Positions 1,840-30,977 of a stretch of 55,962 nt of DNA are shown in pieces. The notes under the pieces were generated by a model, which worked only from the letters and a program-made list of their open reading frames with translations, was not told the DNA's origin and searched no databases. Location of the stretch: IMG/VR virus record IMGVR_UViG_3300012850_000001, one strand, 5' to 3'. The stretch comes from a virus. Position numbers and translations under genes: made by a program. Position 1 is the first letter of the stretch, and each line of letters begins with the position of its first letter.

Positions 1840-2985
1840 CTAGGCGGCTTGGGGGCTGCCTGGGGGCTGGCGCTTCTGGGCGATCAGCGCGGACAGGGCG
1901 ATGCCCACGTGGTCGAGGTCGTCGTCGAACAGCTCTGCGTACTCGTCGAGGGTCATCGCCGCGGACGCGTGACCGACCATCCGCTGGATCGCCTTCACGT
2001 TCGCTCCTGCCGAGATTGCCAGGGACACGGCCGTGTGGCGTAGGTCGTGGGGTGTGATGTGCGGGAGCCCGACCGCGGTCTTCGCGTCCTTGAACTGTCG
2101 CTCGGACCAGTTGTGGCGGTCGACCTGCTTGCCTCGCAGGGTGGTGAAGACGTAGTCGTCGCCCTTCTTGTCGGCGATCGCGGTGCGCAGGATCGGCAGG
2201 AGCTCGTCGACGAGCGGGACCGACCGAACACCTGCGGGTGTCTTCGTCGAGTCTGAAGCCACTCGCCGGCCACCGACGAGGGCGACGGTCGCGGTCACGT
2301 TGACTCGCTTCCGGACGAGGTTCACGTCCCGGGCGCGCAGTTCGGCGGCTTCCCCGACTCGCAGGCCGGTGAACGCGAGGAACGTCGTCCACGCCCGCCA
2401 GTGTGCGGGCATCGCTGCGACGAGGGCGTCGACCTGCGGCACGGTCAGGTAGTGCTTGCGGCGGGTCTTGGCCGATCCGAACTTCACGCCGAGGGCCGGG
2501 TTCACGCCGAGGCGTCGCGCCTTGACGGCTGCGTTGAGCATCGCGGAGAACACCGACCAGACGCGCCGTCGGGTCGCCACTGTGCCGACGTCGAGAAGCC
2601 CGACCCAGACCTGTACCGCCTCATGGGTGACGTCAGCGAGGGCGAGGTCGCCCCACCGCGGGTAGACGTGCACCTTCAGGATCGAGGCGTTGCGCTCTTC
2701 GGTGGAGGGGCGCAGGTCGACGCGCGACGAGTGCCACTGCTGGCCCCACTCGCGCACGGTCATCGCGGACCGTTCGGCGGTGACGTAGGTGCCGGCGCGT
2801 TGCTCGGTCGCGGTCCGCTCGAGGTGGCCGCGTGCGGCGTCCTTGTTGTCGAACGCCTTCTTGCGTCGCTGCCCGCCCGGCTCGGTCCAGACGGCGAGCC
2901 ACCGTGAGCCGCGGCCGTAGCGCTCCGTGCGGGTCTTCTTGCCGTCGGGGCCAGCCTGCATCCACCGATCTTCAACGTGCGCCAT
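1840..2985 (-). CDS. int: Tyrosine integrase.
   Basis: C-terminal HDLRHTAVSLAISAGANVKAIQRMVGHASAAMTLDEYAELF (R..HxxR..Y catalytic signature). Typical phage Int N-terminus. Confidence 0.95.
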   Translation of the reverse strand: MAHVEDRWMQAGPDGKKTRTERYGRGSRWLAVWTEPGGQRRKKAFDNKDAARGHLERTATEQRAGTYVTAERSAMTVREWGQQWHSSRVDLRPSTEERNASILKVHVYPRWGDLALADVTHEAVQVWVGLLDVGTVATRRRVWSVFSAMLNAAVKARRLGVNPALGVKFGSAKTRRKHYLTVPQVDALVAAMPAHWRAWTTFLAFTGLRVGEAAELRARDVNLVRKRVNVTATVALVGGRRVASDSTKTPAGVRSVPLVDELLPILRTAIADKKGDDYVFTTLRGKQVDRHNWSERQFKDAKTAVGLPHITPHDLRHTAVSLAISAGANVKAIQRMVGHASAAMTLDEYAELFDDDLDHVGIALSALIAQKRQPPGSPQAA

Positions 2986-3594: not shown

Positions 3595-4025
3595 GCTCCG
3601 TCCTCGCGTGCTGCGAGGCGCTGTTCGACGTGTTCCTTCTCTGTGGCGGTGAGGTTCGCGAGCCGGCGCCGCAGGACCCGGACGGTGACCCCGAGGTGCT
3701 CGGCGGCGAGTTCGGGGTGCAACGGGTGCACACAGAGGGCATCGGCGATCTCGTCGACGTCCTCAAGGAGGCGGGCCGCTGCGAGCCGGTCGGCGTCTCG
3801 TTCGGAGCGTGTGCCGAACCAGCCAGACTGTGCGGCGTGCCGAAGGTCGATGTGTGCGATCTCATGCGCGAGCGTGCAACGGCGCCCAGCCATGTCGAGC
3901 TCGTCTGACAGCAGGATGATCCGTTCGGACGCCACCCAGGCGCCGTTCACGGGTGCGATGGCGCACCGGTGGACGTGGACGCCTGGGTGGCGTTCCGCTA
4001 CGTCAGCCCAAGGGCTGTAGGTCAA
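3591..4025 (-). CDS. ImmA/IrrE-family zinc metallopeptidase.
   Basis: LAHEIAHIDLRH (HExxH) motif. Lies immediately downstream of the XRE repressor. Confidence 0.85.
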   Translation of the reverse strand: MTYSPWADVAERHPGVHVHRCAIAPVNGAWVASERIILLSDELDMAGRRCTLAHEIAHIDLRHAAQSGWFGTRSERDADRLAAARLLEDVDEIADALCVHPLHPELAAEHLGVTVRVLRRRLANLTATEKEHVEQRLAAREDGA

Positions 4026-4403
4026 CTACTTCTCCTCGATACCTCGCCGTACCTCCCGTGCTACCTCGAGGGCCCGCAGTCGTGCTGCGGTGATCACGAG
4101 GTCACGGTCGTGCTCGTCGAGGTCGGTCAGGTCGATGTCTAGGAGCACGCCTGATGCATCCTGGCTGGGAGGTCTGACATCGGCTTCGATTCCGCGGCTG
4201 ATTCGGTCGATGGTGCCGGGCGCCCAGCCGAGGGCGACGTCGAGCTTGGTGAGGGACGCGGGCCTGGGCCACCGGGTGCCGGCGAGGAAGTCGCCGATGG
4301 TGGCCTTGTCGAGGCTGGTGGTCCGCGTGAGTGCGGCGATGCTGAGGCCTTGCTGGCCCATCGCTGTGCGGACTGCGTCCCGCGCTTGTTCTCGTGTGTC
4401 CAA
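4026..4403 (-). CDS. XRE-family HTH immunity repressor (CI/ImmR-like). TTG start, or a start further downstream.
   Basis: HTH segment QQGLSIAALTRTTSLDKATIGDFLAG. Divergent from the cro-like gene across a 217-nt control region. Confidence 0.8.
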   Translation of the reverse strand: MDTREQARDAVRTAMGQQGLSIAALTRTTSLDKATIGDFLAGTRWPRPASLTKLDVALGWAPGTIDRISRGIEADVRPPSQDASGVLLDIDLTDLDEHDRDLVITAARLRALEVAREVRRGIEEK

Positions 4404-4585
4404 CTTGGTGGCTCTCTCGCTGAGGTCATGGTGGAACAGTGCTGGGTGAAGTCAGGGAACATCAATGTGAGACGGTTTGAACAGGGACCCGTTTCGTCCG
4501 GAAATACCTCCGCCTAGCACGCTGGCGTGATGATGGGCTGACCTGCGAAAACACCCGTCGTCCGCCATGTTCCCCATCGTGGGTG

Positions 4586-4614
4586 TTGACGGTTCCCCCT
4601 AGTTCCTCCATACT
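4586..4614 (+). promoter_or_regulatory. Rightward early promoter, apparently leaderless.
   Basis: TTGACG, 17-nt spacer, CATACT, then 6 nt and ATG 4621. No SD is visible. Confidence 0.55.
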
Positions 4615-4620
4615 GGCGGC

Positions 4621-4875
4621 ATGGCGACGAACACACTTCACCGACTCGACCCGGAGCAGGTGCGGATCGGGGAGACTCTGCGCACCCTGTGGGAGCAGCA
4701 GGGCTACAAGTTGGGCGAGTTCGCAGGCGAACTGGGGATCTCCTACGCGTACCTGTCGAACATCGCAGCCGGGCGCAAGCGCCTGACACCGCAGCTCCTC
4801 GCGAAAGCCTCACGGGTGCTTCGCGTGCGGCAGGTCGCGATCGTCCGGGACGGCTACTACGAGGACGCGGCGTGA
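4621..4875 (+). CDS. Cro-like XRE-family HTH protein.
   Basis: LGEFAGELGISYAYLSNIAAGRK HTH. Position opposite the repressor. Confidence 0.7.
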   Translation: MATNTLHRLDPEQVRIGETLRTLWEQQGYKLGEFAGELGISYAYLSNIAAGRKRLTPQLLAKASRVLRVRQVAIVRDGYYEDAA

Positions 4876-5078: not shown

Positions 5079-5170
5079 ACCACCCCTACCAGCCCTGGCA
5101 GCACACACGCCCCTCACAGACCGGGCGCCAGGGCACGCACCAACCCTCAACCGCCAAGCAGGGAGAACCC

Positions 5171-5368
5171 ATGAAGCGCCCCACCTTCCCGGACGGCCCC
5201 GGCCGTCACCGGGCCCCGTACGAGCTCGTCACCGACCTGTCGAAGTCCCGCGGCCCGTTCCGGCCCGCGATGCACCGCGCCGACGACAACGTCCGCGCCC
5301 TGCGACCCCGCGACGCGTTCTCGGACGACCCGGACCGCACCGTCCGTGGGTTCGGTGACGCCGCGTGA
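5171..5368 (+). CDS. Hypothetical protein (65 aa).
   Basis: GGGAGA SD 5 nt before the ATG. Preceded by the CTCAACCGCCAAG motif. Confidence 0.55.
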   Translation: MKRPTFPDGPGRHRAPYELVTDLSKSRGPFRPAMHRADDNVRALRPRDAFSDDPDRTVRGFGDAA

Positions 5369-5667
5369 GCGTCACGACCCTGACCGCTGACGAGCGCCTC
5401 ACCGGTGCGCGGGAGCACGTCGCCCACGCCATCGCACAGGCCAACATCACGGCGACCGTGGAGATCACGGACCAGCCCACCATCCGGGTCACGGTCGACG
5501 ACCCGATCCGACGCCACGCCCTCGCCGGCGTCATCACCGACGGGCGCCCGATCGCCCGCGAGGTGTTCTACGACAACCCGCCGATGGAGGTCCTGACGGG
5601 CTGGTCCCGGTTCTACCCGGCCATCCCCGTCGCTCTCGTCGGCCCGACCACACGGAGGGCAGCATGA
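5365..5667 (+). CDS. Hypothetical protein.
   Basis: GC3-rich ORF, GTGA coupling. Confidence 0.65.
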   Translation: MSVTTLTADERLTGAREHVAHAIAQANITATVEITDQPTIRVTVDDPIRRHALAGVITDGRPIAREVFYDNPPMEVLTGWSRFYPAIPVALVGPTTRRAA

Positions 5668-6677
5668 GCGTCAACTACGCAGCCCCCGCCGGGAAGCTCA
5701 TCCTTCCGGTCGACCCGGACCGCACGGAGTGGCTCCGTGTGCGGACCCTCGGCGTCGGCGGGACGGACATCGCGACCCTCATGGGTGCGAACAAGTACCA
5801 GACCCCGTTCCAGGCGTGGCAGAGCAAGGTCGACCCGATCCTCGAGGAGGAGTCCTCGGAGGCGATGTGGTGGGGCTCCCAGACGGAAGCCCTGACCGCG
5901 ATCCGGTTCGAGCAGCAGACGGGCCTCTCGACTCGTCGGGCCGGGACGTACCAGTCGAAGACGAACCCGCACCACCTGATCAACCCGGACCGGTTCGTCT
6001 CGGACGGTGGCGTCCTCGAGATCAAGGACCACGAGTCGCTCTCCGCAGCCGGCAAAACGGTCCTGGGCGGTCAGATCACTGACCACGCGTGGGTCCAGCT
6101 GCAGTGGGCCATGCACGTGACCGGCCGGTCGCACGGGTGGTTCGCGGCGAAGGTCGGCAAGCAGACGAAGGTCCTCGGACCGTTCCCTCGTGACGACGCG
6201 TTCATCGCGCGTGCCATCACGGCAGCGGACACGTTCTGGGGGTACGTCACGTCGCGCACGGCACCGCCGATGGACCTCGCCACCGTGACGGCGGACGAGG
6301 TCGCGGCCCGGTTCCCACTCGTCGAGGCGTCGGACGCCGTCGAGGTCACCGCCCTGCCGATCCCGGACATGTACCTCGAGGACCTGGCCCGACTCGACGA
6401 GATCCGCGACCTCGGTTCCCGGTTCTCCGCTGAGCGGGACCAGATCGAGGCCCGACTCAAGGCCCTCATCGGTGAGCACGAGTTCCTGACGGTCAACGGC
6501 CGCCCGGTCCTGCGCTGGCAGCAGGTCGCGGGCAGCAAGGCGTTCGACAAGGCCGCCGCCGTCGCCCGCATCGCGGAGCTCACCGGCAAGACGCCCGTCG
6601 AGGTCGAGGCAGACCTCACGAAGCAGGGCGCCCCGTCGCGCCGCTTCGCCCCCATCACGAACAAGGAGGCAGCATGA
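5664..6677 (+). CDS. YqaJ/RecE-like recombination exonuclease.
   Basis: GGTDIATLMGANKYQTPFQAWQSK and D...EIK PD-(D/E)xK-like motifs. Directly upstream of recT. Confidence 0.8.
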   Translation: MSVNYAAPAGKLILPVDPDRTEWLRVRTLGVGGTDIATLMGANKYQTPFQAWQSKVDPILEEESSEAMWWGSQTEALTAIRFEQQTGLSTRRAGTYQSKTNPHHLINPDRFVSDGGVLEIKDHESLSAAGKTVLGGQITDHAWVQLQWAMHVTGRSHGWFAAKVGKQTKVLGPFPRDDAFIARAITAADTFWGYVTSRTAPPMDLATVTADEVAARFPLVEASDAVEVTALPIPDMYLEDLARLDEIRDLGSRFSAERDQIEARLKALIGEHEFLTVNGRPVLRWQQVAGSKAFDKAAAVARIAELTGKTPVEVEADLTKQGAPSRRFAPITNKEAA

Positions 6678-7525
6678 CCTCGCAGTCGGTGGCGACCGTC
6701 ACCCAGCACCCGTCGTCCGCCCTGGCCGTCACCGCGGGTCAGGCGGACTGGAATCCCCGTCAGATCGCGGCTCTGCGGCAGATCGGTGTCGAGGACGCCG
6801 ATCAGGGCGACCTGGCCGTGTTCCTGAACTTCGCGCAGCGGACCGGTCTGGACCCGTTCGCCCGGCAGATCTACATGATCGGCCGTTTCGACCGCCGATC
6901 GCAGCGCACGAAGTGGACGATCCAGGCGTCGATCGACGGCCTGCGGATCGTGGCCCAGCGGTCCGGTGAGTACGCCGGCCAGGTCGGCCCGGAGTGGTGC
7001 GGCCCTGACGGACAGTGGCGCGACGTGTGGCTCAAGTCCGAGGCGCCCGTCGCTGCCCGTGTGGGAGTCCTGCGGAAGGGGTTCTCGCAGCCGTTGTACG
7101 CGGTGGCCCTTTTCGCGGAGTACGCGTCGGAGTACCAGGGCAAGCCCGCAGGCCTGTGGGGTTCGAAGCCTGCCGTGATGATCGCGAAGTGCGCGGAGGC
7201 TCTGGCGCTGCGCAAGGCGTTCCCGATGGACCTGTCGGGCCTGTACACGGCCGAGGAGATGGCCCAGGCGGACGCACCGGCAGCGGACCCTGCGCCAGCC
7301 GTGGCCCGTGTCGAGGATGTTCCGGCGCGGGACTGGGTCGCTGAGGCCGAGGCGATGAACGACGTCGAGTCGCTACGCGCCCTGTACACGGAGGCCGTGA
7401 ACGGCCTGACAGGCCCGGAGCTGACGAAGGTGAAGGCCGCCATCACGACCCGCGCCGAGGTCGTCTCCGGGCCGCCGCCTGCGGACGAGCCGGTCGATGC
7501 GGAGATCGTCGAGGAGGCTTCGTGA
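6674..7525 (+). CDS. recT: RecT-family single-strand annealing protein.
   Basis: FLNFAQRTGLDPFARQIYMI, IDGLRIVAQRSGEY and MIAKCAEALALRKAFP. Confidence 0.9.
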   Translation: MTSQSVATVTQHPSSALAVTAGQADWNPRQIAALRQIGVEDADQGDLAVFLNFAQRTGLDPFARQIYMIGRFDRRSQRTKWTIQASIDGLRIVAQRSGEYAGQVGPEWCGPDGQWRDVWLKSEAPVAARVGVLRKGFSQPLYAVALFAEYASEYQGKPAGLWGSKPAVMIAKCAEALALRKAFPMDLSGLYTAEEMAQADAPAADPAPAVARVEDVPARDWVAEAEAMNDVESLRALYTEAVNGLTGPELTKVKAAITTRAEVVSGPPPADEPVDAEIVEEAS

Positions 7526-7875: not shown

Positions 7876-8177
7876 GTGACCTGGACCTGACCGAGGCGGC
7901 CGACGTAGCGGCACGGGCGGTGTTCGCAGATGACTACGCGCGGTACGAGGGATTCGGTGGCGACCCGGTCATCTGGGAGGACTACCGGCACGAGGCCCTG
8001 ATCGCCCTCACCGCATCTGCTCCCCTGATCGAGTCGCAGGTGCGGGCGAAGGTCGCCGCGGAGATCGAGGCGTATCGCGGACCCGTGCATGGCGTCCCGC
8101 TGCCCGATTCGGTCGGTCACTGGATCGACAGCGCGGATGCCTACCAGGCTGCCCGCATCGCGCGGGGTGACTCGTGA
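7872..8177 (+). CDS. Hypothetical protein.
   Basis: Coupled ORF, GC3-rich. Confidence 0.6.
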   Translation: MSDLDLTEAADVAARAVFADDYARYEGFGGDPVIWEDYRHEALIALTASAPLIESQVRAKVAAEIEAYRGPVHGVPLPDSVGHWIDSADAYQAARIARGDS

Positions 8178-8689
8178 CCGGGTTCACGAAGGCGGCCGTC
8201 GCGCAGATCGTGGCACGCGACAACGCCGCCTGCGCACGTTGCGGTCGCGGTATCGATCTCCACGCCCGCGGCGTGGCCTGGTCCATTCACCACCGCCGGC
8301 CCCGCGGGATGGGCGGCAGCAGGAACGCGGCCGTGAACGCCACCACCAACGGTGTCGTCCTTTGCGGGTCGGGGACGACCGGATGTCACGGCTGGGTCGA
8401 AGCACACCGGGACGAGGCCCGCTTCCACGGATGGCTGGTGCCCCAGTGGCGTGACCCCGCCGAGGTGCCGGTCCGTCACTACCGGGCCGGGTGGGCGTGG
8501 CTCACCACCGACGGGTGGGTCGCGCTCACCCAGGCCGAGCTGTGGTTGCAGGCCGGCAACTGGCTTGCCGATGAGCTGCAGTCCCGCGGCATCACCGATG
8601 ACGACACCGACGGTGTCACCCGACTGTCCACTGCCGCTGCTGACCTGTTCGGGGTCATGGCTGGCGACCTGAGAAGGGAAGCAGCGTGA
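8174..8689 (+). CDS. HNH endonuclease.
   Basis: CARCGR...SIHHRRPRGMGG...NGVVLCGSGTTGCHGWVE. Confidence 0.85.
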   Translation: MTGFTKAAVAQIVARDNAACARCGRGIDLHARGVAWSIHHRRPRGMGGSRNAAVNATTNGVVLCGSGTTGCHGWVEAHRDEARFHGWLVPQWRDPAEVPVRHYRAGWAWLTTDGWVALTQAELWLQAGNWLADELQSRGITDDDTDGVTRLSTAAADLFGVMAGDLRREAA

Positions 8690-8898
8690 ACCGACCGACC
8701 GACCCCCGCGCCGGCGTGCTGTGCACGTCGTGCAACCGGAAGCGACCCGAAGACCCGACTCACCGCAAGAAGTGGCGCCACTGCACGTCGCCCACGTGCA
8801 CGTGGTGGCGGTGCGACGGGTGCAAGGCCGACAACGACGAGTCGGGGGCGAACTCCCGCACGTACCGCGACGGCACGAGCAAGTCCCAGATCCGCTGA
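8686..8898 (+). CDS. Small Cys-rich, zinc-finger-like protein.
   Basis: CTSCN...CTSPTCTWWRCDGC. Confidence 0.6.
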   Translation: MNRPTDPRAGVLCTSCNRKRPEDPTHRKKWRHCTSPTCTWWRCDGCKADNDESGANSRTYRDGTSKSQIR

Positions 8899-8910
8899 CC
8901 CAAGTTCTAC

Positions 8911-8976
8911 GGCTGCCCCGCCACCTCAACCGCCAAGAAGAACTGGCGGGGCAGCCCCTCCCAACCGGAAGGAGGG
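8911..8976 (+). promoter_or_regulatory. Structured element copy 1. It has a 12-bp stem with a conserved 22-nt loop, followed by a hairpin that sequesters the SD.
   Basis: GGCTGCCCCGCC (8911-8922) pairs with GGCGGGGCAGCC (8945-8956). The loop is ACCTCAACCGCCAAGAAGAACT. CCCTCC (8956-8961) pairs with GGAGGG (8971-8976), which is the SD of ATG 8984. Confidence 0.6.
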
Positions 8977-8983
8977 CACCCGC

Positions 8984-9964
8984 ATGGGTGACCCACGCAA
9001 GACCCTAGCCACCCGACCACGGCACGCCCGAGACCACCGAATCGTCGAGGGGTACTCGACGGCCCGCATGGTCGGGTACTGCCTGTGGGCGGTCGTCATC
9101 GTGGCCGCGATCGTCGTCGGGACCGCGGTCGCAGCTCACGCCGCCGGGTCCGACTCCCCCACCCCGTACACCGTCGACCGCACCGGGATCGCCCTGCCTG
9201 CGGGGCGCACGTTCCAGGACAACGGGCACGTGAACATCCGCTGGACCACCGGGACCGGGGCCGTGCACTTCGAGGGCAAGTGCATCACCCGCACCGACGC
9301 GGAGTGCGCCGGCAAGCGGCACGACGACGCCCAGTACATCGGTGCCGCGTTCATCCCCTGGTCTGCGTTCGGTGACCCGGACTGCGTGACGTGGGTGCAG
9401 ATCAGCGACTTCAACGAGCACTACGGCGAGGGCGGCCAGCCCCCCGTCTGCCTGACCACCAAGGAGCCCACCCCGTGCGCCTCTTCCCCGACCGTGACCC
9501 CGTCGCCCAGCGTGACTCCGAGCGCGACTCCCACCTCGCAGCCGTCTTCAACGACGTCCCCGACGGCGGAACCGTCTACGACGCCCGAGGCAACGCCTAC
9601 ACCGTCACCAAGCGCCCCCTCCCCGAGTCCTTCGATGTCCTCGCCGCCCGCGTCACCCTCACCCTCCGTGACCAGCACGCCCCAGCCGACGCACACCCCG
9701 GCGGTGCCTGCGACGCCCTCGACCCCGAGTTCACCGGCCCCGAGTGCGACGTCGACGCCCTCGCACGAGCCCACGAGGACGCCTGCCGTGCTGGCGACCC
9801 AGCCGCCGTCCGCGACACCTACCGGGCCTGGCTCGCAGCGACCACCCGTCGCACCCGCCGTCTTGGCCGCAACCGGGACTGACACCACCGCGGCGCTGGC
9901 CGTTGGGATCGTCGTCGTGGTCGTCGGTTGCGTCCTCTACACGGCAGCACGGAGGAACCGATGA
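8984..9964 (+). CDS. Secreted, sortase-anchored (LAxTG) surface protein with a long Pro/Thr/Ser-rich linker.
   Basis: Signal-peptide-like LWAVVIVAAIVVGTAVAAHAAG, a Cys-containing globular part, a ~135-aa PTS-rich tract, then LAATG plus a hydrophobic helix and an RRNR tail. Confidence 0.75.
   Translation: MGDPRKTLATRPRHARDHRIVEGYSTARMVGYCLWAVVIVAAIVVGTAVAAHAAGSDSPTPYTVDRTGIALPAGRTFQDNGHVNIRWTTGTGAVHFEGKCITRTDAECAGKRHDDAQYIGAAFIPWSAFGDPDCVTWVQISDFNEHYGEGGQPPVCLTTKEPTPCASSPTVTPSPSVTPSATPTSQPSSTTSPTAEPSTTPEATPTPSPSAPSPSPSMSSPPASPSPSVTSTPQPTHTPAVPATPSTPSSPAPSATSTPSHEPTRTPAVLATQPPSATPTGPGSQRPPVAPAVLAATGTDTTAALAVGIVVVVVGCVLYTAARRNR
9470..9870 (+). repeat. Low-complexity Pro/Thr/Ser-coding tract inside the surface-protein gene (approximate bounds).
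   Basis: The translation is almost entirely P/T/S/A. Confidence 0.7.
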
Positions 9965-11529
9965 GCGCCAACCTCACGGTCACGGACTTCTTTTGCGGCG
10001 CCGGCGGCTCGTCGACCGGCATGACCGAGGTCCCCGGCCTCACGGTCGTCATGGCCGCGAACCACTGGGCCCTCGCGATCGAGACCCACAACCAGAACCA
10101 CCCCTACACCGACCACGCAGCCGCGGACCTCCACCTCGAGGAGCCGTCGTTCTTCAAGAAGACCGACATCCTGTGGGCGTCGCCCGAGTGCACGAAGTGG
10201 TCGCAGGCGAACGGGACCGCCCGGCCGGCGATCGAGGAGGGGTTGTTCGAGGACCCGCTGTCGTCGGACGCCGCGACCCGCTCGCGTCTCCTGATGTTCG
10301 ACGTCCTCAAGTTCGCCGAGTACCACCAGTACCGGGCGATGATCATCGAGAACGTCGTCGACATCGCGACCCAGGAGAAGTACCGGCTCGCGTGGCACGA
10401 GTGGCGCCGCCAGCTCCGTGCCCTCGGGTACCGGTTCCGGGTCGTCTCGCTGAACAGCATGCACGCCCAGATGCTCGGCGACCCCGCCCCACAGTCCCGC
10501 GACCGGATCTACATCGTGTGCTGGCGCGAGGGCGAGCGCGCCCCCGACGTCGAGCGCGCGATGCGGCCGAAGGCGTGGTGCCCGAAGTGCGACGCCATCA
10601 TCGAGGCGTCACAGTCGTGGAAGAACGGCCGCGTCGTCGGCAAGTACCGGTCCCAGTACCTCTACGTGCACGGCGCCTGCGGGGCAGTCGTCGAGCCGAC
10701 GTGGCTGCCGGCCGCCGCGGCGATCGACTGGTCGATCCCCGGTGAGCGGATCGGCGACCGGTCGAAGCCCCTCGCGGAGAAGACGCAGCTCCGGATCGCC
10801 GCCGGCATCGCCAGGTACTGGGGCCCGCTGCACATCGAGGAGTCCGGCAACCAGTACGACGCCGCGGACCCGAAGCACCCCCAGCACGGCGACCCGAACG
10901 CCTACTACCGGGCGTGGCCGACCAGCGAGTACATGCGGACCCTGACGACCCGCGAGACGCGCGGGTTCGTGCAGCCGCCGTTCGTCGCCGAGATGTACGG
11001 AACGAGCACCGCGCGCCCGGTCACCGAGCCGGCCGGGACGTTCACCGCAGGCGGCAACCACCACGCGCTCGTCATGACGAACCAGCGGCAGAACCGGGTC
11101 CGCACGACGAGCGAGCCCATGCCGACGAGCACCACCGCCACCGGCGGCGGGCAGGCACTCATCCACCGGATGAACAGCGGCGGCGCCGAGATGACGACAC
11201 CGATGTTCGAGGAGCTGCGGACCCTGACGACGAAGGGCCACCAGGCACTCGTGCAGTCCGGGCGCCCGAACGTGACCGTCGCCGACCTGCGGGCCGCGCG
11301 CGAGCTGATGCCGGACGTCCTGTTCCGGATGTTCCGCCCGCACGAGGTCGCCGCCGGCATGGCGTTCCCCAGCACGTACCGCTGGGACGCCATCGACCCG
11401 AAGACCGGGAAGCCCGCCACGAATGCCGACGTCACGAAGATGGCCGGCAACGCCGTCACCCCGCCGTGCTCCCGTGACCTCGCCGCCACCGTCTACGAGG
11501 CCCTCACCGGAGAGGCGGTTGCGGCATGA
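9961..11529 (+). CDS. DNA (cytosine-5) methyltransferase.
   Basis: DFFCGAGG (motif I), SPECTKWS (PC motif IV), IIENV (motif VI), GNAVTPP (motif X). ATGA overlap at the start. Confidence 0.9.
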   Translation: MSANLTVTDFFCGAGGSSTGMTEVPGLTVVMAANHWALAIETHNQNHPYTDHAAADLHLEEPSFFKKTDILWASPECTKWSQANGTARPAIEEGLFEDPLSSDAATRSRLLMFDVLKFAEYHQYRAMIIENVVDIATQEKYRLAWHEWRRQLRALGYRFRVVSLNSMHAQMLGDPAPQSRDRIYIVCWREGERAPDVERAMRPKAWCPKCDAIIEASQSWKNGRVVGKYRSQYLYVHGACGAVVEPTWLPAAAAIDWSIPGERIGDRSKPLAEKTQLRIAAGIARYWGPLHIEESGNQYDAADPKHPQHGDPNAYYRAWPTSEYMRTLTTRETRGFVQPPFVAEMYGTSTARPVTEPAGTFTAGGNHHALVMTNQRQNRVRTTSEPMPTSTTATGGGQALIHRMNSGGAEMTTPMFEELRTLTTKGHQALVQSGRPNVTVADLRAARELMPDVLFRMFRPHEVAAGMAFPSTYRWDAIDPKTGKPATNADVTKMAGNAVTPPCSRDLAATVYEALTGEAVAA

Positions 11530-12137
11530 GTCCCGACCTTCGGGCGCGGACGCTGACCCGCCCCCACACCCAGGACACGACGATCCCGGACGTCTGGCGT
11601 TCGGATGCGGCTTGCCTCGATGTGGACCCGGACCTGTTCTTCGAGCCGGCGGGCGGCGAGTCCGCGGCTGACAAGGAGGCCCGAGTCGACGAGGCGAAGG
11701 CGGCCTGCGCGGCCTGCCCAGTCCTCGACCAGTGCCTCGCTGACGCTGCCGGGGACCGCTACGCGATCCGTGGCGGCATGACACCGGACGAGCGGACGAT
11801 GCGACCCGCTGCCCGCAAGGTCCCGCCGTCGCGGCTGACGTCGACGCGTGACCGAGTGGTCGCGCAGGCAAAGCAGGGAGTGGCGCCCGCGCAAATCGCC
11901 CGAGTCCTCGGACTGAACGAGCGGTCCGTGTACCGGTACATCAAGCAAGCCCGCGACGCCGGCGACCTGCCCCGCCCCACCGAACGCACGCTCGACGCCC
12001 CGACGGCTGACCACAGGTGCGGCACCTACGCAGGCGCCCAGGCCCACACCCGACGCGGCGAGGAGCAGTGCGCCCCGTGCCACGACGCGGCAGCGACGTT
12101 CTACCGGAACCGCAAGTCCCAGGAGGTGGCGGCATGA
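11526..12137 (+). CDS. WhiB-like Fe-S transcription factor fused to a C-terminal HTH.
   Basis: AACLDVDPDLFF...CAACPVLDQC...GGMTPDER, followed by AQIARVLGLNERSVYRYIKQAR. Confidence 0.8.
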   Translation: MSPDLRARTLTRPHTQDTTIPDVWRSDAACLDVDPDLFFEPAGGESAADKEARVDEAKAACAACPVLDQCLADAAGDRYAIRGGMTPDERTMRPAARKVPPSRLTSTRDRVVAQAKQGVAPAQIARVLGLNERSVYRYIKQARDAGDLPRPTERTLDAPTADHRCGTYAGAQAHTRRGEEQCAPCHDAAATFYRNRKSQEVAA

Positions 12138-12610
12138 CCGCGTGTGCCCCGGAGGCCAACCCTCCGATCGACCTGACCGAGATCACCGAGCGCTCCTCCG
12201 AGCATGACGTGACGGTCGCCCGGAACCTGTGCATCACGTGCCCGGCCCTGGTGAAGTGCCGCCAGTACGTGCTGCGGACCACGGACGTCGCGGGCATGGC
12301 CGCCGGGATGACCGAACGGGAACGGGACGCGTGGCGGGACCGTCACGGCCTCGCCGTGAAGGTCGTCGACATCATCGACGCCACCCCCGCCCACCAGCTC
12401 ACCCCAGCGATCCTGTCCGGCCTTCCCCACCCGGACGGCACGTCGACCGAACTGCACCCGCGGGTGCGTGAGGTCGTCATTCGGATGACGAACGCCGGCC
12501 TGACCGCCGACGACATCGTGACCCGACTCGACCGTGACGACGTGACACACCGGACGGTCAACTACCTGCGCCGCACCTACATGAAGGGGTGGGCCCGTGT
12601 GGACGCCTGA
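12134..12610 (+). CDS. Second WhiB-like protein.
   Basis: Cys pattern C4...CITCPALVKC followed by AAGMTERER. Confidence 0.6.
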   Translation: MTACAPEANPPIDLTEITERSSEHDVTVARNLCITCPALVKCRQYVLRTTDVAGMAAGMTERERDAWRDRHGLAVKVVDIIDATPAHQLTPAILSGLPHPDGTSTELHPRVREVVIRMTNAGLTADDIVTRLDRDDVTHRTVNYLRRTYMKGWARVDA

Positions 12611-16293: not shown

Positions 16294-16661
16294 TGCCGAA
16301 GCGCATCCAGATGACCCGTCAGCACCCGTGGCGGGTCGACAGCCCGGACGCGGTGATCGTGAGCAGACCGGGTCCGCTTGGCAACCCGTTCCGCATCGGC
16401 GAGTGGTACACGCCTGGCGCGACCGGGCCCGACCCGCACATCTACCTGTGGGGCGTGTCCGAGCGGGTTCGCGACCGAGCGCACGCTGTCGATCTGTTCC
16501 GTGAGTGGCAGCACCACCGACGGAACTACCGCTACAACCCGTTCTCCGATGCCGCACTCGGAGCCCTCGCTGGCCGCGACCTGGCCTGCTGGTGCCCGCT
16601 CGACCAGCCGTGCCACGCGGACGTGCTGCTCAACCTCGCGAACCGACCAGAGGCGGCCTGA
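16293..16661 (+). CDS. Small conserved phage protein, DUF4326-like.
   Basis: GPLGNPF...DLACWCPLDQPCHADVL signature, recalled from the DUF4326 family. No search was run. Confidence 0.45.
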   Translation: MPKRIQMTRQHPWRVDSPDAVIVSRPGPLGNPFRIGEWYTPGATGPDPHIYLWGVSERVRDRAHAVDLFREWQHHRRNYRYNPFSDAALGALAGRDLACWCPLDQPCHADVLLNLANRPEAA

Positions 16662-17470
16662 TGTCCTGGTTCAAGGTCGACGACAAGCTCTGGGGCCACC
16701 CGAAGTGGCTCGCCACCCCGCCCCGTGCCCGGGCGCTGTGGATCACTGCGGGCTCGTGGTGCGCCGCGCAGGAGCAGGACGGGAAGGTCCCCGTGCACGT
16801 CCTGCCCATGCTCGGCGCCTCGAAGGCCGACGCACTCGCGTTGGTCGCTTCGGGCCTCTGGGAGGACGGCGAGAACGGGTGGGTGTTTCACGGTTGGGCA
16901 GAGTTCCAGCCGACGCGTGCGCAGCAGGACGAGAAGCGCGAGGCCGCCCGTGAGCGCATGCGCAAGGCACGCGAACGTCGCGCGAACGAGTCCGAGAACG
17001 AGCACGACGGTTCGGAGGGTGTTCGCGCGAACAGCGAGCGAACTTCGCGCGGTGTTCGCTCTACCCCGACCCGACCCGACCCGACCCCTAAGTCAGAACC
17101 TGACGGTTCTGACGTGTCGCCAGCCCGTGCCGATGTCGAGGCGCTCTGCCTGCACCTCGCGGACCGCATCGAGGCCAACGGCTCCACGAGGCCGACGATC
17201 ACCAAGGGCTGGCGTGACGCGGCCCGGCGGATGCTTGACATCGACGGCCGCACCCCGGAGCAGGTGGTGCGGGCGATCGACTGGTGCCAGGACGACGACT
17301 TCTGGCGCGGCAACGTCCTGTCGATGCCGAAGCTGCGCGAGAAGTACGACCAGATGCGCCTGCAGGCGGCCCGCACGGAGCCCCGTTCAACGGACCGGCA
17401 GGGCGACCTCCTGCGCCGCGAGTACGAGCGCATCAACTCTCAACCGCAGACCCTGCAGATCGGAGCCTGA
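16661..17470 (+). CDS. Putative replication initiation/organizer protein.
   Basis: N-terminal MSWFKVDDKLWGHPKW winged-helix-like region as in phage replisome organizers. Basic/acidic central linker. Position upstream of SSB and DnaB. Confidence 0.45.
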   Translation: MSWFKVDDKLWGHPKWLATPPRARALWITAGSWCAAQEQDGKVPVHVLPMLGASKADALALVASGLWEDGENGWVFHGWAEFQPTRAQQDEKREAARERMRKARERRANESENEHDGSEGVRANSERTSRGVRSTPTRPDPTPKSEPDGSDVSPARADVEALCLHLADRIEANGSTRPTITKGWRDAARRMLDIDGRTPEQVVRAIDWCQDDDFWRGNVLSMPKLREKYDQMRLQAARTEPRSTDRQGDLLRREYERINSQPQTLQIGA

Positions 17471-17830: not shown

Positions 17831-18289
17831 ATGTCTGGCGAGACGACCATCACGGTCATCGGGAACCTGACTGGTGACCCGGAACTGCGCTTTACCCCGA
17901 GCGGCCAGGCGGTCGCGAACTTCACCGTCGCGAGTACGCCGCGGGTGTTCGACAAGGCGAAGAACGAGTGGGTCGACGGTGACACGCTGTTCATGCGCTG
18001 CTCGATCTGGCGGGAGGCGGCGGAGTCGGTCGCTGAGTCGCTGACGAAGGGCACCCGGGTCATCGTGACGGGGCAGCTGGTGCAGCGGTCGTACGAGAAG
18101 GACGGCGAGAAGCGGACCGTCGTCGAGCTCAAGGCCGACGAGGTGGGCCCGTCGCTCAAGTACGCCACGGCCCGCGTCACCCGCACTCAGCGCGGTACCG
18201 CACCGGCCGGTCAGTCGCGCGGCGTCCAGGACTCCGACCCGTGGGCGTCCTCGGGCTCGGGGTCGTACTCGGACGAGCCTCCGTTCTGA
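17831..18289 (+). CDS. ssb: Single-stranded DNA-binding protein.
   Basis: OB-fold N-terminus [27 protein letters not shown]. Acidic tail ending DEPPF. Confidence 0.95.
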
Positions 18290-18291
18290 CC

Positions 18292-19239
18292 ATGAGGAGC
18301 CGGTACAGCAACGAGGAGATCATCGCCGCCTACAAGGCGACCGGATCCGTCTGGGCGGCTGGGAAGGCTCTTGGGATGGCCGGCCAGACCATCCACAAGA
18401 AGTTGACCGCACTCGGCTACCCCATGGCGCATGCCGCCTGGACTGACGACGAGATTGCCGAACTTGCCTCGCTCACCGAGGCGGGGGTCCGCATCGGTGA
18501 GATAGCCGACAGGCTCGGCCGGTCCTACGCCGCCGTGGCGGTTCGGGCCAGCCGAGCAGGCCTGAAGTCGGCAGCGCCGCGAGAACGGAAGGTCCCTCGC
18601 GGCGCTGGGTACGACAAGGTGTCCACGCTCCGAAACATGAAAGAGCTCGAGTCGTGCGACCTGGGTGTGACCCGGTTCGCTCGAGCGAAGGGGCTCCGGG
18701 TCGACAACCTCGTCCTGGCACTGCAGAAGCACTGTCCTGAGCGTTTGGAGGCGTACACGCGGACGCACAGCACGATCCCCGAGAAGGTCTGCGCCTACTG
18801 CGGGGGGACGTTCTTTCCCGCCAATGGCAAGCAGCGCTTCTGCGGTCGCAAGTGTCAGTCGACGTCGCGGTCCGACGCGGACTACTTCGGTGGCCGGCGC
18901 CGGGAGACGGTCGGGCTCGCGGAGGCGACCTGCCAGCTCTGTGGTCGCCAGGGCGTTCCTGGCTTGTCGTCGCACCACGTGTTCGGCAAGGAGAACGACC
19001 CGGACAACAACATGCTCGTTGCCCTCTGCCGTGGTTGCCACAAGGTCATCACGATCCTCGGCGGCCGTTACTTCACCGACGACGAGACGTCTTGGGAGTC
19101 ACTCATCTCTCTTGCGTGGCTTCGGAAGCACGGTGACCTGTACGCCGCTGGGCAGATGGAGGGGCTGTCGCTGCGAGTGTCTGTTGAGCTCGAGGTCTAT
19201 GCCGCAGACGAGGTGGATGAGTTGCCGACTTCCGCCTGA
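18292..19239 (+). CDS. HNH endonuclease with N-terminal HTH repeats.
   Basis: CAYCGG...CQLCGR...SSHHVFGKENDPDNNMLVALCRGCH, and two HTH-like segments. Confidence 0.8.
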   Translation: MRSRYSNEEIIAAYKATGSVWAAGKALGMAGQTIHKKLTALGYPMAHAAWTDDEIAELASLTEAGVRIGEIADRLGRSYAAVAVRASRAGLKSAAPRERKVPRGAGYDKVSTLRNMKELESCDLGVTRFARAKGLRVDNLVLALQKHCPERLEAYTRTHSTIPEKVCAYCGGTFFPANGKQRFCGRKCQSTSRSDADYFGGRRRETVGLAEATCQLCGRQGVPGLSSHHVFGKENDPDNNMLVALCRGCHKVITILGGRYFTDDETSWESLISLAWLRKHGDLYAAGQMEGLSLRVSVELEVYAADEVDELPTSA

Positions 19240-19363
19240 CCTCGTCGCTCGCGGATCACGGTCCGTGAGGTGACTTCACCCGCTGACTTGGCTGAGGTGG
19301 CGTAACTTCCGGCCGGATTCTGTGTCACAACGGGGAACATTGGGGTACTGTATTCCTCGTAAG

Positions 19364-19427
19364 GCGATGGGTCGCCTCAACCGCCAAGTTCGAAGAACCG
19401 ACCCTTCGCTCCAACCGGTGTGAAGGG
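19364..19427 (+). promoter_or_regulatory. Structured element copy 2. It has an 11-bp stem with a conserved 24-nt loop and an alternative hairpin that sequesters the SD.
   Basis: GCGATGGGTCG (19364-19374) pairs with CGACCCTTCGC (19399-19409) with one mismatch. The loop is CCTCAACCGCCAAGTTCGAAGAAC. CCCTTC (19402-19407) pairs with GAAGGG (19422-19427). Confidence 0.6.
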
Positions 19428-19436
19428 CATGGACCC

Positions 19437-19616
19437 ATGAAGCTGATGTGGAAGCGGAAGGCTGCTCGCAGGGACGCGAACGGCATCACCGACGAGACGT
19501 ACCTGCAGGCCGCTGCGACGGCCGCCCAGACCGAGCCCGCGATGACCGAGGACGACCTGCTGGTGTTCCCGATCGTGTGCGGGATCCTTCGGGACTCGCG
19601 GCCGGCGGCAGCCTGA
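19437..19616 (+). CDS. Hypothetical small protein (59 aa), below the track cutoff.
   Basis: GAAGGG lies 9 nt before the ATG. GC3-rich. TGATG-coupled to the next gene. Confidence 0.55.
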   Translation: MKLMWKRKAARRDANGITDETYLQAAATAAQTEPAMTEDDLLVFPIVCGILRDSRPAAA

Positions 19617-20017
19617 TGGGCCCCAACAAGCGCGGATCGTTCCAGGACTGCGACCTGACGGACCACGCCGCTCCGCGGCGCACGGTGTTCGAGTCGGCGC
19701 GGGCCGCCGGGCGCTCGGAGGCGTGCGCGGTCCACCAGCACATGTCGATGACGTCGGCGTGCACGTGCGCGACGTCCGTGCCCGACTCGCGTCGCAAGGG
19801 CCGCCCGGCGTGGCGGCGCGTTAACGCCGCCGACGAGTCGATCACCTCCGCGGAGCTCGCGGCACGCCAGCAGGCGCCGAACGGCAAGGCGTCGCTCCGT
19901 GAGGTCGTCCTCGACCTTCACGCGATGCCCCTGGGGCGTCACGGTCACCTGCCGCAGTCCGCGGTCATCGCGAACGCGAACGCCTGGCGGAACGAGTACC
20001 CCCGGGCCCTCGCATGA
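19616..20017 (+). CDS. Hypothetical protein.
   Basis: GC3-rich frame of track ORF 19448..20017, starting at the coupled ATG. Confidence 0.6.
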   Translation: MGPNKRGSFQDCDLTDHAAPRRTVFESARAAGRSEACAVHQHMSMTSACTCATSVPDSRRKGRPAWRRVNAADESITSAELAARQQAPNGKASLREVVLDLHAMPLGRHGHLPQSAVIANANAWRNEYPRALA

Positions 20018-20259
20018 GTATCGACTACCAGGACGCCCTGCGCACCCAACACTACGAGGAGTCCCGCGAGCCCGTCGGGATCATCGACGAGCACCAGTTC
20101 AGTGCCGTCCACGGCCCGGCCGGATTCTTCGCGGCACGGTGTGACTGCGGCGTCGAGTTCGTGTCCCGCGAAGCCCGCGGCATCGACGAGCAGCACGAGG
20201 CACACCTCGAGCGGGTCCTCGACGAGGCTGAGGCCGACCTGTTCGGTGACGACGCGTGA
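20014..20259 (+). CDS. Hypothetical protein.
   Basis: ATGA-coupled ORF. Confidence 0.6.
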   Translation: MSIDYQDALRTQHYEESREPVGIIDEHQFSAVHGPAGFFAARCDCGVEFVSREARGIDEQHEAHLERVLDEAEADLFGDDA

Positions 20260-20738
20260 CCGGCCGATACGCGGAGGGGACCGCTGTCTCCCCGGAGCGT
20301 TCGCAGGCGGAGATTGCCGAGCTGCTGCGCCGGTACGGCGCGACGGGCTACACCTACGGGTGGGACGAGGGCGCTAACGGTGTGCAGCGTGCGGCGATCG
20401 CTTTCAAGGCGCACGGTCGCATGGTCCGCTTTCTCGTCGACCTGCCCGACCCGGCCGCGAAGGAGTTCTGGCGCACGGAGACGGGACGGCAGCGTGACCG
20501 CGCCGGCGCCGTGAAGGCCCACGAGGGCGAACTGCGGCGCCGCTGGCGCTGTCTCGCCCTGGCGATCAAGGCGAAGCTCGAGGCCGTCGAGACGGGGATC
20601 GCGACGTTCGAGGACGAGTTCCTCGCGTACACGGTCCTGCCGGACGGGTCCACGGTCAGCGACCAGGTGCAGCGTCAGATCGAGGACGCGTGGAAGGCCG
20701 GCGGCCAGCCTCCACGTCTGCAGATCGGCGGCGCCTGA
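20256..20738 (+). CDS. Hypothetical protein.
   Basis: GTGA-coupled ORF, GC3-rich. Confidence 0.65.
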   Translation: MTGRYAEGTAVSPERSQAEIAELLRRYGATGYTYGWDEGANGVQRAAIAFKAHGRMVRFLVDLPDPAAKEFWRTETGRQRDRAGAVKAHEGELRRRWRCLALAIKAKLEAVETGIATFEDEFLAYTVLPDGSTVSDQVQRQIEDAWKAGGQPPRLQIGGA

Positions 20739-22331: not shown

Positions 22332-23017
22332 CCGAGCGCCTGACCGACGAGCGGCTCACGGAGATCCGGACACGGCTGGGTGCGGCGACACCAGGACCGT
22401 GGCACTGGCGCAACACCCAAGAGGTCTACCTCGTGGGTGCCCAGACGCGCATCGTCATGGCCTTCGAGCGCATGGGGATGCAGGGTGCACAGCCGAGCTT
22501 CCGGGACAGCGACAACCTGCTCTGGCCCGCCGGCCGGGAGAATCTGAACGCCATCCCCGACGCCACGCTGATCGCACACGCACCGGCCGACATCGCGGAC
22601 CTGCTCGCGGAGGTCGAGCGCCTGCGACGCGCCACGACCACGCTCGACAGGACCGCCGACGAGCTGGCCGGGGACGTGCTGCGGGCGGTGGGTGAGCGGG
22701 ACGAGTGGAAGGCCCGTTGGAAGGCCACCGTCGAGGACGCACAGACCGCACGCAACGAGCGCGACGAGGCTCGGGACAAGTTCGCCGCACAGGTCACCGT
22801 CGCCAACGGGTACTACGCCGAGTGGCAGAAGGCTCGGGACGCGGTGGAGGCCGTGCTCGCGGTGCACCGGCCACTGAACAACCTCGGCTCGCCGCCCTGT
22901 GCGGTCTGCCTGATCGAGACGGGCGACGACGAGCCGGGGCTGGCGCCGTGGCCCTGTGAGACCGTGCGCGCGATCACCGCTACCGGGTACGTGACCAACC
23001 CGAAGGATTCCGTGTGA
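22328..23017 (+). CDS. Ead/Ea22-like protein.
   Basis: N-terminal DERLTEIRTRLGAATPGPWHW signature typical of the family. Coiled-coil centre. Confidence 0.55.
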   Translation: MTERLTDERLTEIRTRLGAATPGPWHWRNTQEVYLVGAQTRIVMAFERMGMQGAQPSFRDSDNLLWPAGRENLNAIPDATLIAHAPADIADLLAEVERLRRATTTLDRTADELAGDVLRAVGERDEWKARWKATVEDAQTARNERDEARDKFAAQVTVANGYYAEWQKARDAVEAVLAVHRPLNNLGSPPCAVCLIETGDDEPGLAPWPCETVRAITATGYVTNPKDSV

Positions 23018-25043: not shown

Positions 25044-25117
25044 GCCCCTGTAGCTCAGAGGATAGAGCGCACTTCTGGCGAAGGTTGAGGTCGCGGGTTC
25101 GAGTCCCGCCAGGGGCA
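25044..25117 (+). tRNA. tRNA-like gene with an Arg-type body and a non-canonical anticodon arm. Isotype unresolved; the best 7-nt loop gives anticodon GGC.
   Basis: Acceptor GCCCCTG/CAGGGGC, D arm GCTC-AGAGGATA-GAGC, T arm GCGGG-TTCGAGT-CCCGC. The anticodon region CACTTCTGGCGAAGGTTG is one nt too long for a standard arm. Confidence 0.7.
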
Positions 25118-25171
25118 CAAGAGAGCGAGAGGCCCCGGGACGTCCATCCCGGGGCCTCTCCTGTCTCTTGT
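25117..25171. terminator. Long hairpin after the tRNA-like gene (candidate bidirectional terminator).
   Basis: ACAAGAGA-gc-GAGAGGCCCCGGGA-cgtcca-TCCCGGGGCCTCTC-ctg-TCTCTTGT. Confidence 0.7.
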
Positions 25172-30352: not shown

Positions 30353-30439
30353 GTCGGGAGTCTGGCAGCACTGGGACTCGCCCCGGTGGGTGATTCTGTG
30401 TGACGGATCGAGTGGCACCCTCAACCGCACGATCGGCCC

Positions 30440-30861: not shown

Positions 30862-30977
30862 GCGAGCGCAGCGACTCGGCTTGGGAGGCGTACCACGTGC
30901 CAGACCGTGAGCTTGACGCGGTCTTCCTCATGCTCGCGGCGATCCACGAACTGATCGAGCAGCGGCTGACGCAGTGA
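30858..30977 (+). CDS. Hypothetical small protein (39 aa).
   Basis: ATGA-coupled on both sides. Confidence 0.4.
   Translation: MSERSDSAWEAYHVPDRELDAVFLMLAAIHELIEQRLTQ

Follow-up and report, generated by a model that had tools for sequence, protein, structure and literature searches.

A stem-loop with a conserved loop and a variable stem upstream of genes in actinobacterial phages and integrative elements

Results

The window analysed here is the whole 55,962-base stretch of IMG/VR virus record IMGVR_UViG_3300012850_000001. It has 68.7% G+C, carries nearly every gene on the plus strand and reads as a temperate-phage genome (prophage-like). The element under study is a hairpin (HP1) whose long, conserved loop stands shortly before the start codon of a gene. 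Its loop opens with the 14-mer CCTCAACCGCCAAG, which occurs exactly three times in the window, at 5145 (copy 3), 8924 (copy 1) and 19375 (copy 2). All three copies are on the sense strand and intergenic, and they occupy larger intergenic gaps of the early region. No copy with one or two mismatches exists in the 56 kb. Allowing up to three mismatches gives 19 matches, compared with 6.6 ± 2.6 in shuffled sequences, and none of 100 shuffles reached 19. The recurrence of the 14-mer in the window is therefore far beyond chance. An earlier note on this DNA had described two copies of the element; both are present, but a third exact 14-mer (5145-5158), which has no stem, had been overlooked. The features are listed in Table 1.

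The HP1 of copy 1 is the minimum-free-energy fold of 8905-8990 (-45.5 kcal/mol, z = -4.3), and none of 200 shuffles was equally stable. Its stem had been counted as 12 bp, with the closing A-U pair omitted; the hairpin itself is confirmed, with 13 bp. The stem of copy 2 lies where it had been placed, but the 11 bp ascribed to it are 10 bp and one T·T mismatch. The loop of copy 2 equals that of copy 1 with a UUCG insertion. This second HP1 is absent from the local minimum-free-energy fold (z = -1.5, 15 of 200 shuffles equally stable) and is not convincing by its own fold alone. In copy 3, the 14-mer is followed by cagGGAGAACccATG, with the Shine-Dalgarno sequence (SD) GGGAG at 5161-5165 directly 3' and the ATG at 5171. 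The fold of this copy is no stabler than that of shuffled sequence.

The distance from the end of HP1 to the start codon is 21-45 nt in every hairpin-bearing member, always on the sense strand. Directly 3' of HP1, each hairpin copy has a C/U-rich tract (CCCUCC, CUCCCU, CCCUUC or CCUUCC), which the folds pair with the SD in a second hairpin (HP2). The second hairpins reported before, CCCTCC/GGAGGG (8956-8976) and CCCTTC/GAAGGG (19402-19427), are as claimed; the positions of both start codons (8984 and 19437) and the 197-nt gap before the latter gene also hold. HP1 and HP2 of copy 2 indeed overlap at 19402-19407; the switch-like architecture deduced from this is not supported, being peculiar to copy 2, and elsewhere the two hairpins are adjacent and non-overlapping. 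Many members hold the start codon in a further hairpin (HP3), with CAUCAUG/CGUGAUG as the Streptomyces version.

The gene behind copy 1 encodes a protein whose N-terminus bears a transmembrane segment; the protein also has a long P/S/T-rich region, and at its C-terminus a LAATG sortase signal precedes a hydrophobic stretch and RRNR. Its homologues form more than 100 clusters in Micrococcales genomes and metagenomes, some named LPXTG cell-wall-anchored protein by the source. It is likely a lysogenic-conversion or exclusion gene. The gene behind copy 3 is the first after the cro-like and excisionase-like genes. HNH endonuclease genes are located just upstream of copy 1 (8174-8689, with a 70-aa Cys-rich open reading frame (ORF) between) and of copy 2 (18241-19239). 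This neighbourhood may be coincidental because the hairpin of relative L003 has no HNH gene upstream. Two small features elsewhere in the window resemble parts of the element. The partial motif CCTCAACCG at 30419-30427 stands 13 nt before the ATG at 30440 (66-aa ORF), has no covariance-model match and is possibly due to chance. A small hairpin, CCGCC-AACC-GGCGG (32665-32678), is located shortly before AGGAGG and the ATG of a 59-aa gene at 32706.

Relatives (L with a number) were sought by exact-pattern scans of IMG/VR, one genome per GTDB species and JGI/ENA metagenomes. The matches were mostly due to chance or coding, with three informative groups. Orthologues of copy 1 in L002/L049 and L003/L021/L033 precede homologous surface-protein genes. 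In comparison to the window, the L002 stem has a G-C pair swapped to C-G and the L003 stem has G-C in place of the closing A-U pair. The gene upstream of the hairpin in L003 differs from that in the window; therefore, the hairpin travels with the downstream, not the upstream gene. Three Streptomyces genomes (L030, L035 and L036) have the identical 20-nt loop on a stem of unrelated sequence, CCAGGGGCGGCG / CGCCGCCCCUGG. Altogether, the 20-nt loop of copy 1 is identical in L002, L003/L021/L033 and the Streptomyces loci L030/L035/L036/L237, while the stems differ. A simple form is present on a phage contig with 56% GC (L001/L004/L012/L058). There, no hairpin accompanies the 14-mer, which is flanked by a promoter-like TTGCGT-17-TATTGT on one side and AGGAGAAC-N9-ATG on the other, like copy 3 of the window. 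In L001/L004, the promoter-like sequence is followed by the leader TCTCGTAGCGGG, similar to that of copy 2, and then by the 14-mer.

By gene content, the Streptomyces loci are pSAM2-type integrative conjugative elements (AICEs). They encode an integrase, an excisionase-like protein, RepSA (PF20199, E = 1.5e-154), a helix-turn-helix protein, the small orf81 and a divergent GntR/KorSA-like repressor. The hairpin is located in the leader of the orf81-HTH-repSA-xis-int operon (HTH, helix-turn-helix gene) or directly before repSA. In the operon leader, it lies downstream of TTGACA and operator-like inverted repeats. In L036 (5960-6080, minus strand), and also in L035 and L237, the gap between the GntR/KorSA-like gene and orf81 has TTGACA followed by the inverted repeats CCCTAAGG..CCCTAGGGAACCTTAGGG. 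In the L036-type AICE, this is probably a KorSA-type operator and promoter driving the hairpin leader. Six further versions of the element were obtained via orf81 homologues, their contigs and RepSA homologues in IMG/VR (Table 1). In L238 and L239, the hairpin stands directly before repSA, and the L238 stem is lengthened by further pairs. The RepSA proteins of L036, L229 and L230 are 91-94% identical, and the hairpin arms are unrelated. The Cellulomonas-type phages and the Streptomyces AICEs have no protein in common by tblastx at E <= 1e-4, despite the identical 20-nt loop.

The distribution of the hairpin module is sporadic. Distant surface-protein homologues in Demequina, Isoptericola, Microbacterium and Populibacterium have no hairpin upstream, and 19 distant phage loci found via the protein of 20256-20738 have no motif. 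The 14-mer alone gave only noise in IMG/VR among the matches listed, and a scan with a degenerate loop pattern gave coding matches only. PLSDB plasmids yielded 8 weak matches; the sole candidate, an Arthrobacter match, is a purH-like coding sequence by its translation and was rejected as a chance match. A different, widespread intergenic repeat starts with the same 14-mer, CCTCAACCGCCAAG[AG]CGCCAAGAACGCCAAG... It is present on metagenome contigs and in metagenome-assembled genomes, for example of Acidobacteriota (L024, L029, L045, L053, L056, L065, L070, L072, L076, L078, L085, L090). This repeat is often located beside simple repeats such as GATTACGCAGATT or AATCCGAAATCC, and it occurs on non-actinobacterial contigs. 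L002 has a tandem 24-nt repeat at 1-240 (GCCTACGGCTCGGCCACGGTCACG and variants) within a coding region that replaces the window genes upstream of 5353.

Among 13 distinct stems from prophages and Streptomyces AICEs, the loop core GCCAAG never varies and ACCGCCAAG hardly does. Covariation was tested with 10 in-register sequences in a MAFFT alignment not fitted to structure, counting 13 stem pairs. Standard pairs are formed in 89% of the cells. Changes on both sides affect 11 of the 13 stem pairs, 33 cells altogether. The covariation score was 0.67, compared with 0.18 ± 0.04 for shuffles, none of 500 being as high; alignments slid out of register scored 0.12-0.23. A covariance model, R1, was built from the ten aligned sequences, with copy 2, L238 and L239 outside the training set. 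It recovered copy 2 with 28.0 bits (E = 2e-4), L238 with 27.6 bits and L239 with 26.8 bits. The training members scored 47-69 bits, window copy 1 having 62.6 bits. In 100 loci with a chance occurrence of the 14-mer (0.93 Mb), the highest score was 23.1 bits. Copy 3 scored 11.4 bits in a local match to the loop only.

The hairpin is thus under selection by pairing and the loop under selection by sequence. The loop is kept while stems turn over, even at 91-94% RepSA identity; therefore, selection acts on the loop sequence, but only on the pairing of the stem. The conserved loop and covarying stem proposed in the earlier note from two copies are borne out by the significant covariation, and the check it suggested in relatives found both features. 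It had not recognised the element as a known one. In agreement with this, Rfam 15 matched only a tRNA in the whole window at the gathering threshold. With E up to 10, window 8850-9020 and L036 5850-6080 had only sub-threshold matches to generic hairpins. The nearest bacterial Rfam 15 family is 6C RNA, whose 17.4 bits fall short of the gathering score of 47. No paper on the loop sequence in such a context turned up in the literature library searched.

Several further readings of the conserved sequence were tried and dropped. No hairpin with a complementary loop recurs between loci in the window or the AICEs, except for the element's own antisense strand. Inspection gave no consistent complementarity of the loop to the 16S rRNA 3' tail or other rRNA and tRNA segments, and no fit to LexA, extracytoplasmic-function sigma or RecA-independent promoter motifs. 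An ops/RfaH-like element (GGCGGTAG, minus strand of L230/L233/L236) has the wrong orientation, and RfaH is not known from actinobacteria. The idea of a leader peptide spanning HP1 was rejected as the reading frame is not conserved, with a 2-nt indel between L036 and L035/L030. A pseudoknot partner, GGCGG or a UUGGCG-like sequence, was not found near the SD.

The nearest sequences to the window are the IMG/VR and metagenome contig L002/L049, with 82-88% identity over 5.3-9.1 kb, and the prophage fragments L021 and L033, which match L003 and come from the metagenome-assembled genome of a Cellulomonas sp. On account of these relatives, the host is probably a Cellulomonas-like member of the Micrococcales. 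Among GenBank phages, there is no close relative. Only methylase matches were found (~70-79% identity), the structural region had no match and the hairpin element itself had no real match. Besides the genes in Table 1, the window encodes a ParB-like protein and a large methylase. Two adjacent WhiB-like genes (11526-12137 and 12017-12610; Pfam Whib, E = 5e-15 and 4e-8) are present, the first fused to a helix-turn-helix domain. The window's one tRNA is a phage-borne tRNA-Ala with anticodon GGC (25044-25118).

Table 1. Features of the window and HP1 sequences of further relatives.
Feature	Position	Strand	Description
Integrase	1840-2985	-	
cro-like regulator	4621-4875		PHROGs match
Excisionase-like helix-turn-helix gene	ends 5078		label from reading the translation, not a family match
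Copy 3, simple form	5145-5173	+	14-mer at 5145-5158, no HP1
Gene downstream of copy 3	5171-5368	+	65 aa; ORF, translation, third-codon-position GC
RecE-like and RecT-like genes	5664-7525		
HNH endonuclease	8174-8689		
HP1, copy 1	8911-8956	+	perfect 13-bp GC-rich stem, 20-nt loop; 5' arm GGCTGCCCCGCCA (8911-8923), loop CCTCAACCGCCAAGAAGAAC (8924-8943), 3' arm TGGCGGGGCAGCC (8944-8956)
Conserved loop, copy 1	8924-8943	+	CCTCAACCGCCAAGAAGAAC, core ACCGCCAAG
HP2, copy 1	8957-8976	+	CCUCC(C) tract with SD GGAGG(G), CCCTCC/GGAGGG at 8956-8976; minimum-free-energy folds
HP3, copy 1	8977-8990	+	CACCC/GGGUG, holds start codon ATG 8984; minimum-free-energy folds
Gene downstream of copy 1	8984-9964	+	surface protein; translation
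DNA methyltransferase	9928-11529		
O-like replication initiator	16505-17470		
SSB	17831-18289		
Promoter-like TGTCAC-17-TACTGT	19323-19351	+	upstream of copy 2; inferred from sequence reading, consensus promoter scan negative
HP1, copy 2	19364-19409	+	10 bp and one U·U mismatch, 24-nt loop; 5' arm GCGATGGGTCG (19364-19374), loop CCTCAACCGCCAAGTTCGAAGAAC (19375-19398), 3' arm CGACCCTTCGC (19399-19409)
HP2, copy 2	19402-19427	+	CCCUUC/GAAGGG; in the minimum-free-energy fold; 5' arm inside the HP1 3' arm
Gene downstream of copy 2	19437-19616	+	59 aa; first gene past the 197-nt gap; ORF list, third-codon-position GC, translation
DnaB helicase	23014-24297		
Large terminase subunit	30974-32458		
HP1, L229			stem GGGAGCGGC / GCCGCUCCC; loop CCCCCACCGCCAAGUAGUCA
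HP1, L230			stem GGAGGGCGACG / CGCCGCCCUCC; loop CACCUACCGCCAAGCAGAU
HP1, L233			stem GGAGGACGGCG / CGCCGCCCUCC; loop CACCUACCGCCAAGCAGAC
HP1, L234			stem GCCCCGAGCGGUGU / ACACCGCUCGGGGC; loop GCUCUCUGCCAAGAUCACG
HP1, L236			stem GGGGCGACGC / GCGUCGCCCC; loop CCUACCGCCAAGCAGAU
HP1, L238 and L239			stem CCGGGCGGC / GCCGCCCGG; loop (UG)CAACCGCCAAGU(U/C)UCC

Discussion

The element is best explained as a structured 5'-leader or intercistronic module of actinobacterial mobile elements, namely Micrococcales-type temperate phages and pSAM2-type AICEs. On sequence evidence, it may be a sense-strand cis-regulatory leader RNA with a loop that is read by a partner to control translation; the probability of this reading is about 0.5. 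The GC-rich stem, of arbitrary sequence, would keep the 17-24-nt loop with its core ACCGCCAAG single-stranded. At the mRNA level, the downstream gene would be poorly translated by default. A putative trans-acting partner that recognises the loop would then set the level of translation. Candidates are an RNA with UUGGCGG in a loop or an RNA-binding protein. A sense RNA is favoured by the orientation, the position relative to the start codons and the anti-SD tract. The element is classed as a leader stem-loop that presents a recognition loop beside an occluded ribosome-binding site.

Several observations weigh against this explanation. Copy 3 and L001/L004 have no HP1 at all. L231, with a RepSA 82-84% identical to those of hairpin-bearing AICEs, has no such hairpin, and the distant homologues of the downstream genes in L241-L244 are without the element. 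All four internal stem mismatches (L036 lineage, L230, L233 and L238) are A·C on the sense strand and hence G·U on the opposite strand. Internal G·U pairs on the sense strand number zero, a ratio of 4 to 0 in small numbers. With G·U allowed, the minus-strand stems are longer, with 13 versus 9 pairs in L229 and 15 versus 9 in L239. This mismatch asymmetry runs opposite to the prediction of a sense-only RNA hairpin. The pairing of tract and SD also gave no support by covariation. Matched and mixed combinations between members had -9.83 and -9.96 kcal/mol (permutation p = 0.55; the tract of copy 2 was partly cut off). The pairing in HP2 is generic and not covarying; any CCUCC-like tract fits any GGAGG-like SD. 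The C-to-T and G-to-A differences between the two second hairpins, taken as compensatory in the earlier note, therefore lose this meaning, as matched pairs are no better than mismatched ones.

The strand asymmetry bears on a countertranscript. A minus-strand small RNA with the loop ...CUUGGCGGU... and a U-turn-type UUGG would kiss the CGCCAA loop of the mRNA and block or permit translation. As the mismatches read G·U on the minus strand but A·C on the plus strand, greater stability would be expected of the antisense hairpin. One such RNA could serve all three sites, whose loops are identical. A like asymmetry was seen in an IncK1 plasmid, with -35.4 kcal/mol for the RNAI strand versus -26.7 kcal/mol for the complementary strand. 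The apical loop of IncK RNAI, CCGCCAAA in the repA leader, has the heptamer CCGCCAA in common with the loop of the element, and the position directly before repSA in L238 and L239 fits as well. Yet the CCGCCAA strand is the antisense RNA in IncK and the mRNA strand here. Consensus scans of either strand gave no promoter- or terminator-like antisense site, a weak argument in high-GC actinobacteria, and no T run follows the minus-strand hairpin. Sequence reading revealed neither a conserved leader peptide nor a downstream pseudoknot partner. Divergence between elements would be expected of antisense loops rather than invariance across genera, and copy 3 is hairpinless. A countertranscript is thus a rather unlikely explanation, although it accounts for the asymmetry.

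The hairpin may also act as DNA. In a rolling-circle double-strand origin, a RepSA-type initiator would nick CTTG|GCGG (minus strand) in the loop of an extruded hairpin, and the variable arms would provide the binding specificity. Such origins are described as hairpins that carry a highly conserved nick site in the loop, the binding site being less conserved, and pSAM2 has been assigned to the pC194 family with the nick site CTTGAT (PMC2440964; PMC3218068). The layout of conserved loop and variable arms agrees with this description, the AICE hairpin adjoins the repSA operon and the minus-strand loop reads ..TCTTGGCGG.. The mismatches favour folding of the minus strand, and G·T is tolerated in DNA. 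However, the minus-strand loops are CTTGGCGG or CTTGGCAG, with CTTGGC in place of CTTGAT and only CTTG in common. The arms do not track Rep, being unrelated next to RepSA proteins of 91-94% identity, and L231 has a closely related RepSA and no hairpin. The window encodes an O-like initiator along with SSB and DnaB; PHROGs, Pfam and tblastx detected no Rep, yet the window holds three copies, one of them hairpinless. Nor would an origin account for the uniform distance to start codons or the C/U tract next to the hairpin. An origin is accordingly improbable.

A duplex DNA operator would need only the 14-mer as an asymmetric, stoperator-like repressor or activator site, with the inverted repeats being incidental. 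The 14-mer is indeed asymmetric, exactly repeated, intergenic and in a single orientation, and copy 3 lacks the hairpin. Selection for pairing, evident from the both-side changes in 11 of 13 stem pairs, is unneeded by a duplex site. The region 3595-4620, from the integrase-side genes to cro, is where an immunity operator is expected, and it has no copy within 3 mismatches. The core is also invariant between Cellulomonas-type phages and Streptomyces AICEs, for which tblastx (E <= 1e-4) revealed no common protein. Taken together, this makes an operator very improbable. Least probable of all is an intercistronic terminator or mRNA-stabilising hairpin, in which HP1 would end or protect the upstream transcript with a loop that has no reader: the stems are long and GC-rich and HP1 follows the co-directional upstream stop codon after 12 nt in copy 1 and 4-8 nt in L238/L239, but no member has a T/U run after the stem, a scan of 8700-9200 and 19150-19650 revealed no terminator-like site, the 17-24-nt loop is far above terminator-loop size, descent does not explain an invariant loop on replaced stems, and copy 2 and the L036-type AICE copies do not follow a gene but lie in 5' leaders, with promoter-like sequences upstream.

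The invariance of the loop while stems and neighbouring genes are replaced points to a reader that is common to the hosts or to the elements. Speculatively, the loop may be a common 'address' by which unrelated actinobacterial mobile elements submit early, replication or lysogenic-conversion genes to one reader. This could be a conserved host RNA-binding factor or cross-acting countertranscripts. With countertranscripts, elements that have this loop in common might sense one another or interfere with one another; for instance, the RNA of an AICE or prophage could silence the early genes of an incoming phage. To our knowledge, post-transcriptional control is very poorly known in actinobacterial phages and AICEs, and we know of no Hfq or CsrA in actinobacteria. 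The element looks like a regulatory signal common to unrelated mobile elements that has not been described before. It is compact and easily mutated, a hairpin of ~50 nt with an invariant 9-nt loop core, and it extends from Cellulomonas-type prophages to Streptomyces integrative elements. It would provide a handle on the timing of replication, excision and lysogenic-conversion genes and on the molecule reading the loop. It would also help to tell whether different mobile elements use one regulatory channel jointly or compete for it. Furthermore, the element is a candidate for a new family in RNA databases and might serve as an expression-control part in Streptomyces engineering.

Comparison with known systems

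Stoperators of Cluster A mycobacteriophages are many copies of an asymmetric repressor site, one of them at the early lytic promoter. The element differs by having only three copies in the window and none within 3 mismatches in 3595-4620. With double-strand origins of the pC194 and phiX174 type it shares the conserved loop, the variable arms, the location next to a rep gene and CTTG. Unlike these origins, it occurs in a phage without such an initiator, is missing from L231 and has a fixed spacing to start codons. SD-sequestering leader hairpins, such as translational operators and RNA thermometers, are similar in the C/U tract that pairs with the SD and in the small hairpin holding the start codon. 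Unlike in these leaders, the defining part of the element is the upstream hairpin with its sequence-specific loop, and the SD pairing does not covary.

In the I-complex plasmids (RNAI and stem-loop I) and in plasmid R1 (CopA and CopT), an antisense RNA kisses an mRNA loop and thereby controls downstream translation. Asano and Mizobuchi are said to have placed the UUGGCG motif in mRNA stem-loop I in 1998, and the motif is reportedly conserved across many antisense systems. Like in the I-complex and IncFII antisense control, the AICE hairpin is located in the leader of a replication-initiator gene. Its apical loop has CGCCAA/UUGGCG, and the complementary hairpins differ in stability by G·U versus A·C. 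A 5'-rUUGGCG-3' loop motif of ColIb-P9 is named in the titles of Asano et al. 1998 as cited in PMC10724649. In contrast to IncK1, where CCGCCAA is on the RNAI strand, it is on the mRNA strand of the element. The element further differs from the I-complex and IncFII systems in that an antisense promoter, a leader peptide and a pseudoknot partner were all looked for without success. Its hosts are Actinobacteria, it also precedes phage genes not involved in replication, and its conserved core is longer (9-14 nt).

The nearest described actinophage phenomenon is the start-associated sequences (SAS) and extended SAS of Cluster K mycobacteriophages. SAS is the 13-bp sequence GGGATAGGAGCCC, which includes the SD and is located a few bases before the start codon, with 11-19 copies per genome (PMC3203893). 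In the extended SAS, the inverted repeats are conserved and the spacer is variable, and the authors find little support for an mRNA hairpin (PMC3203893). The function is unexplained, and a host or phage RNA or protein has been proposed as the reader (PMC3203893). Both SAS and the element are short, asymmetric actinophage repeats in one orientation, upstream of the starts of a gene subset with large intergenic gaps, and some SAS copies have inverted repeats upstream as well. The sequence is different, and the window has 3 copies. The pattern of conservation is reversed in comparison to the extended SAS, since the arms of the element vary, both sides of a pair being changed, and conservation lies in the spacer, that is, the loop. 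Finally, SAS belongs to one phage cluster, whereas the element is common to phages and the AICEs of another order.

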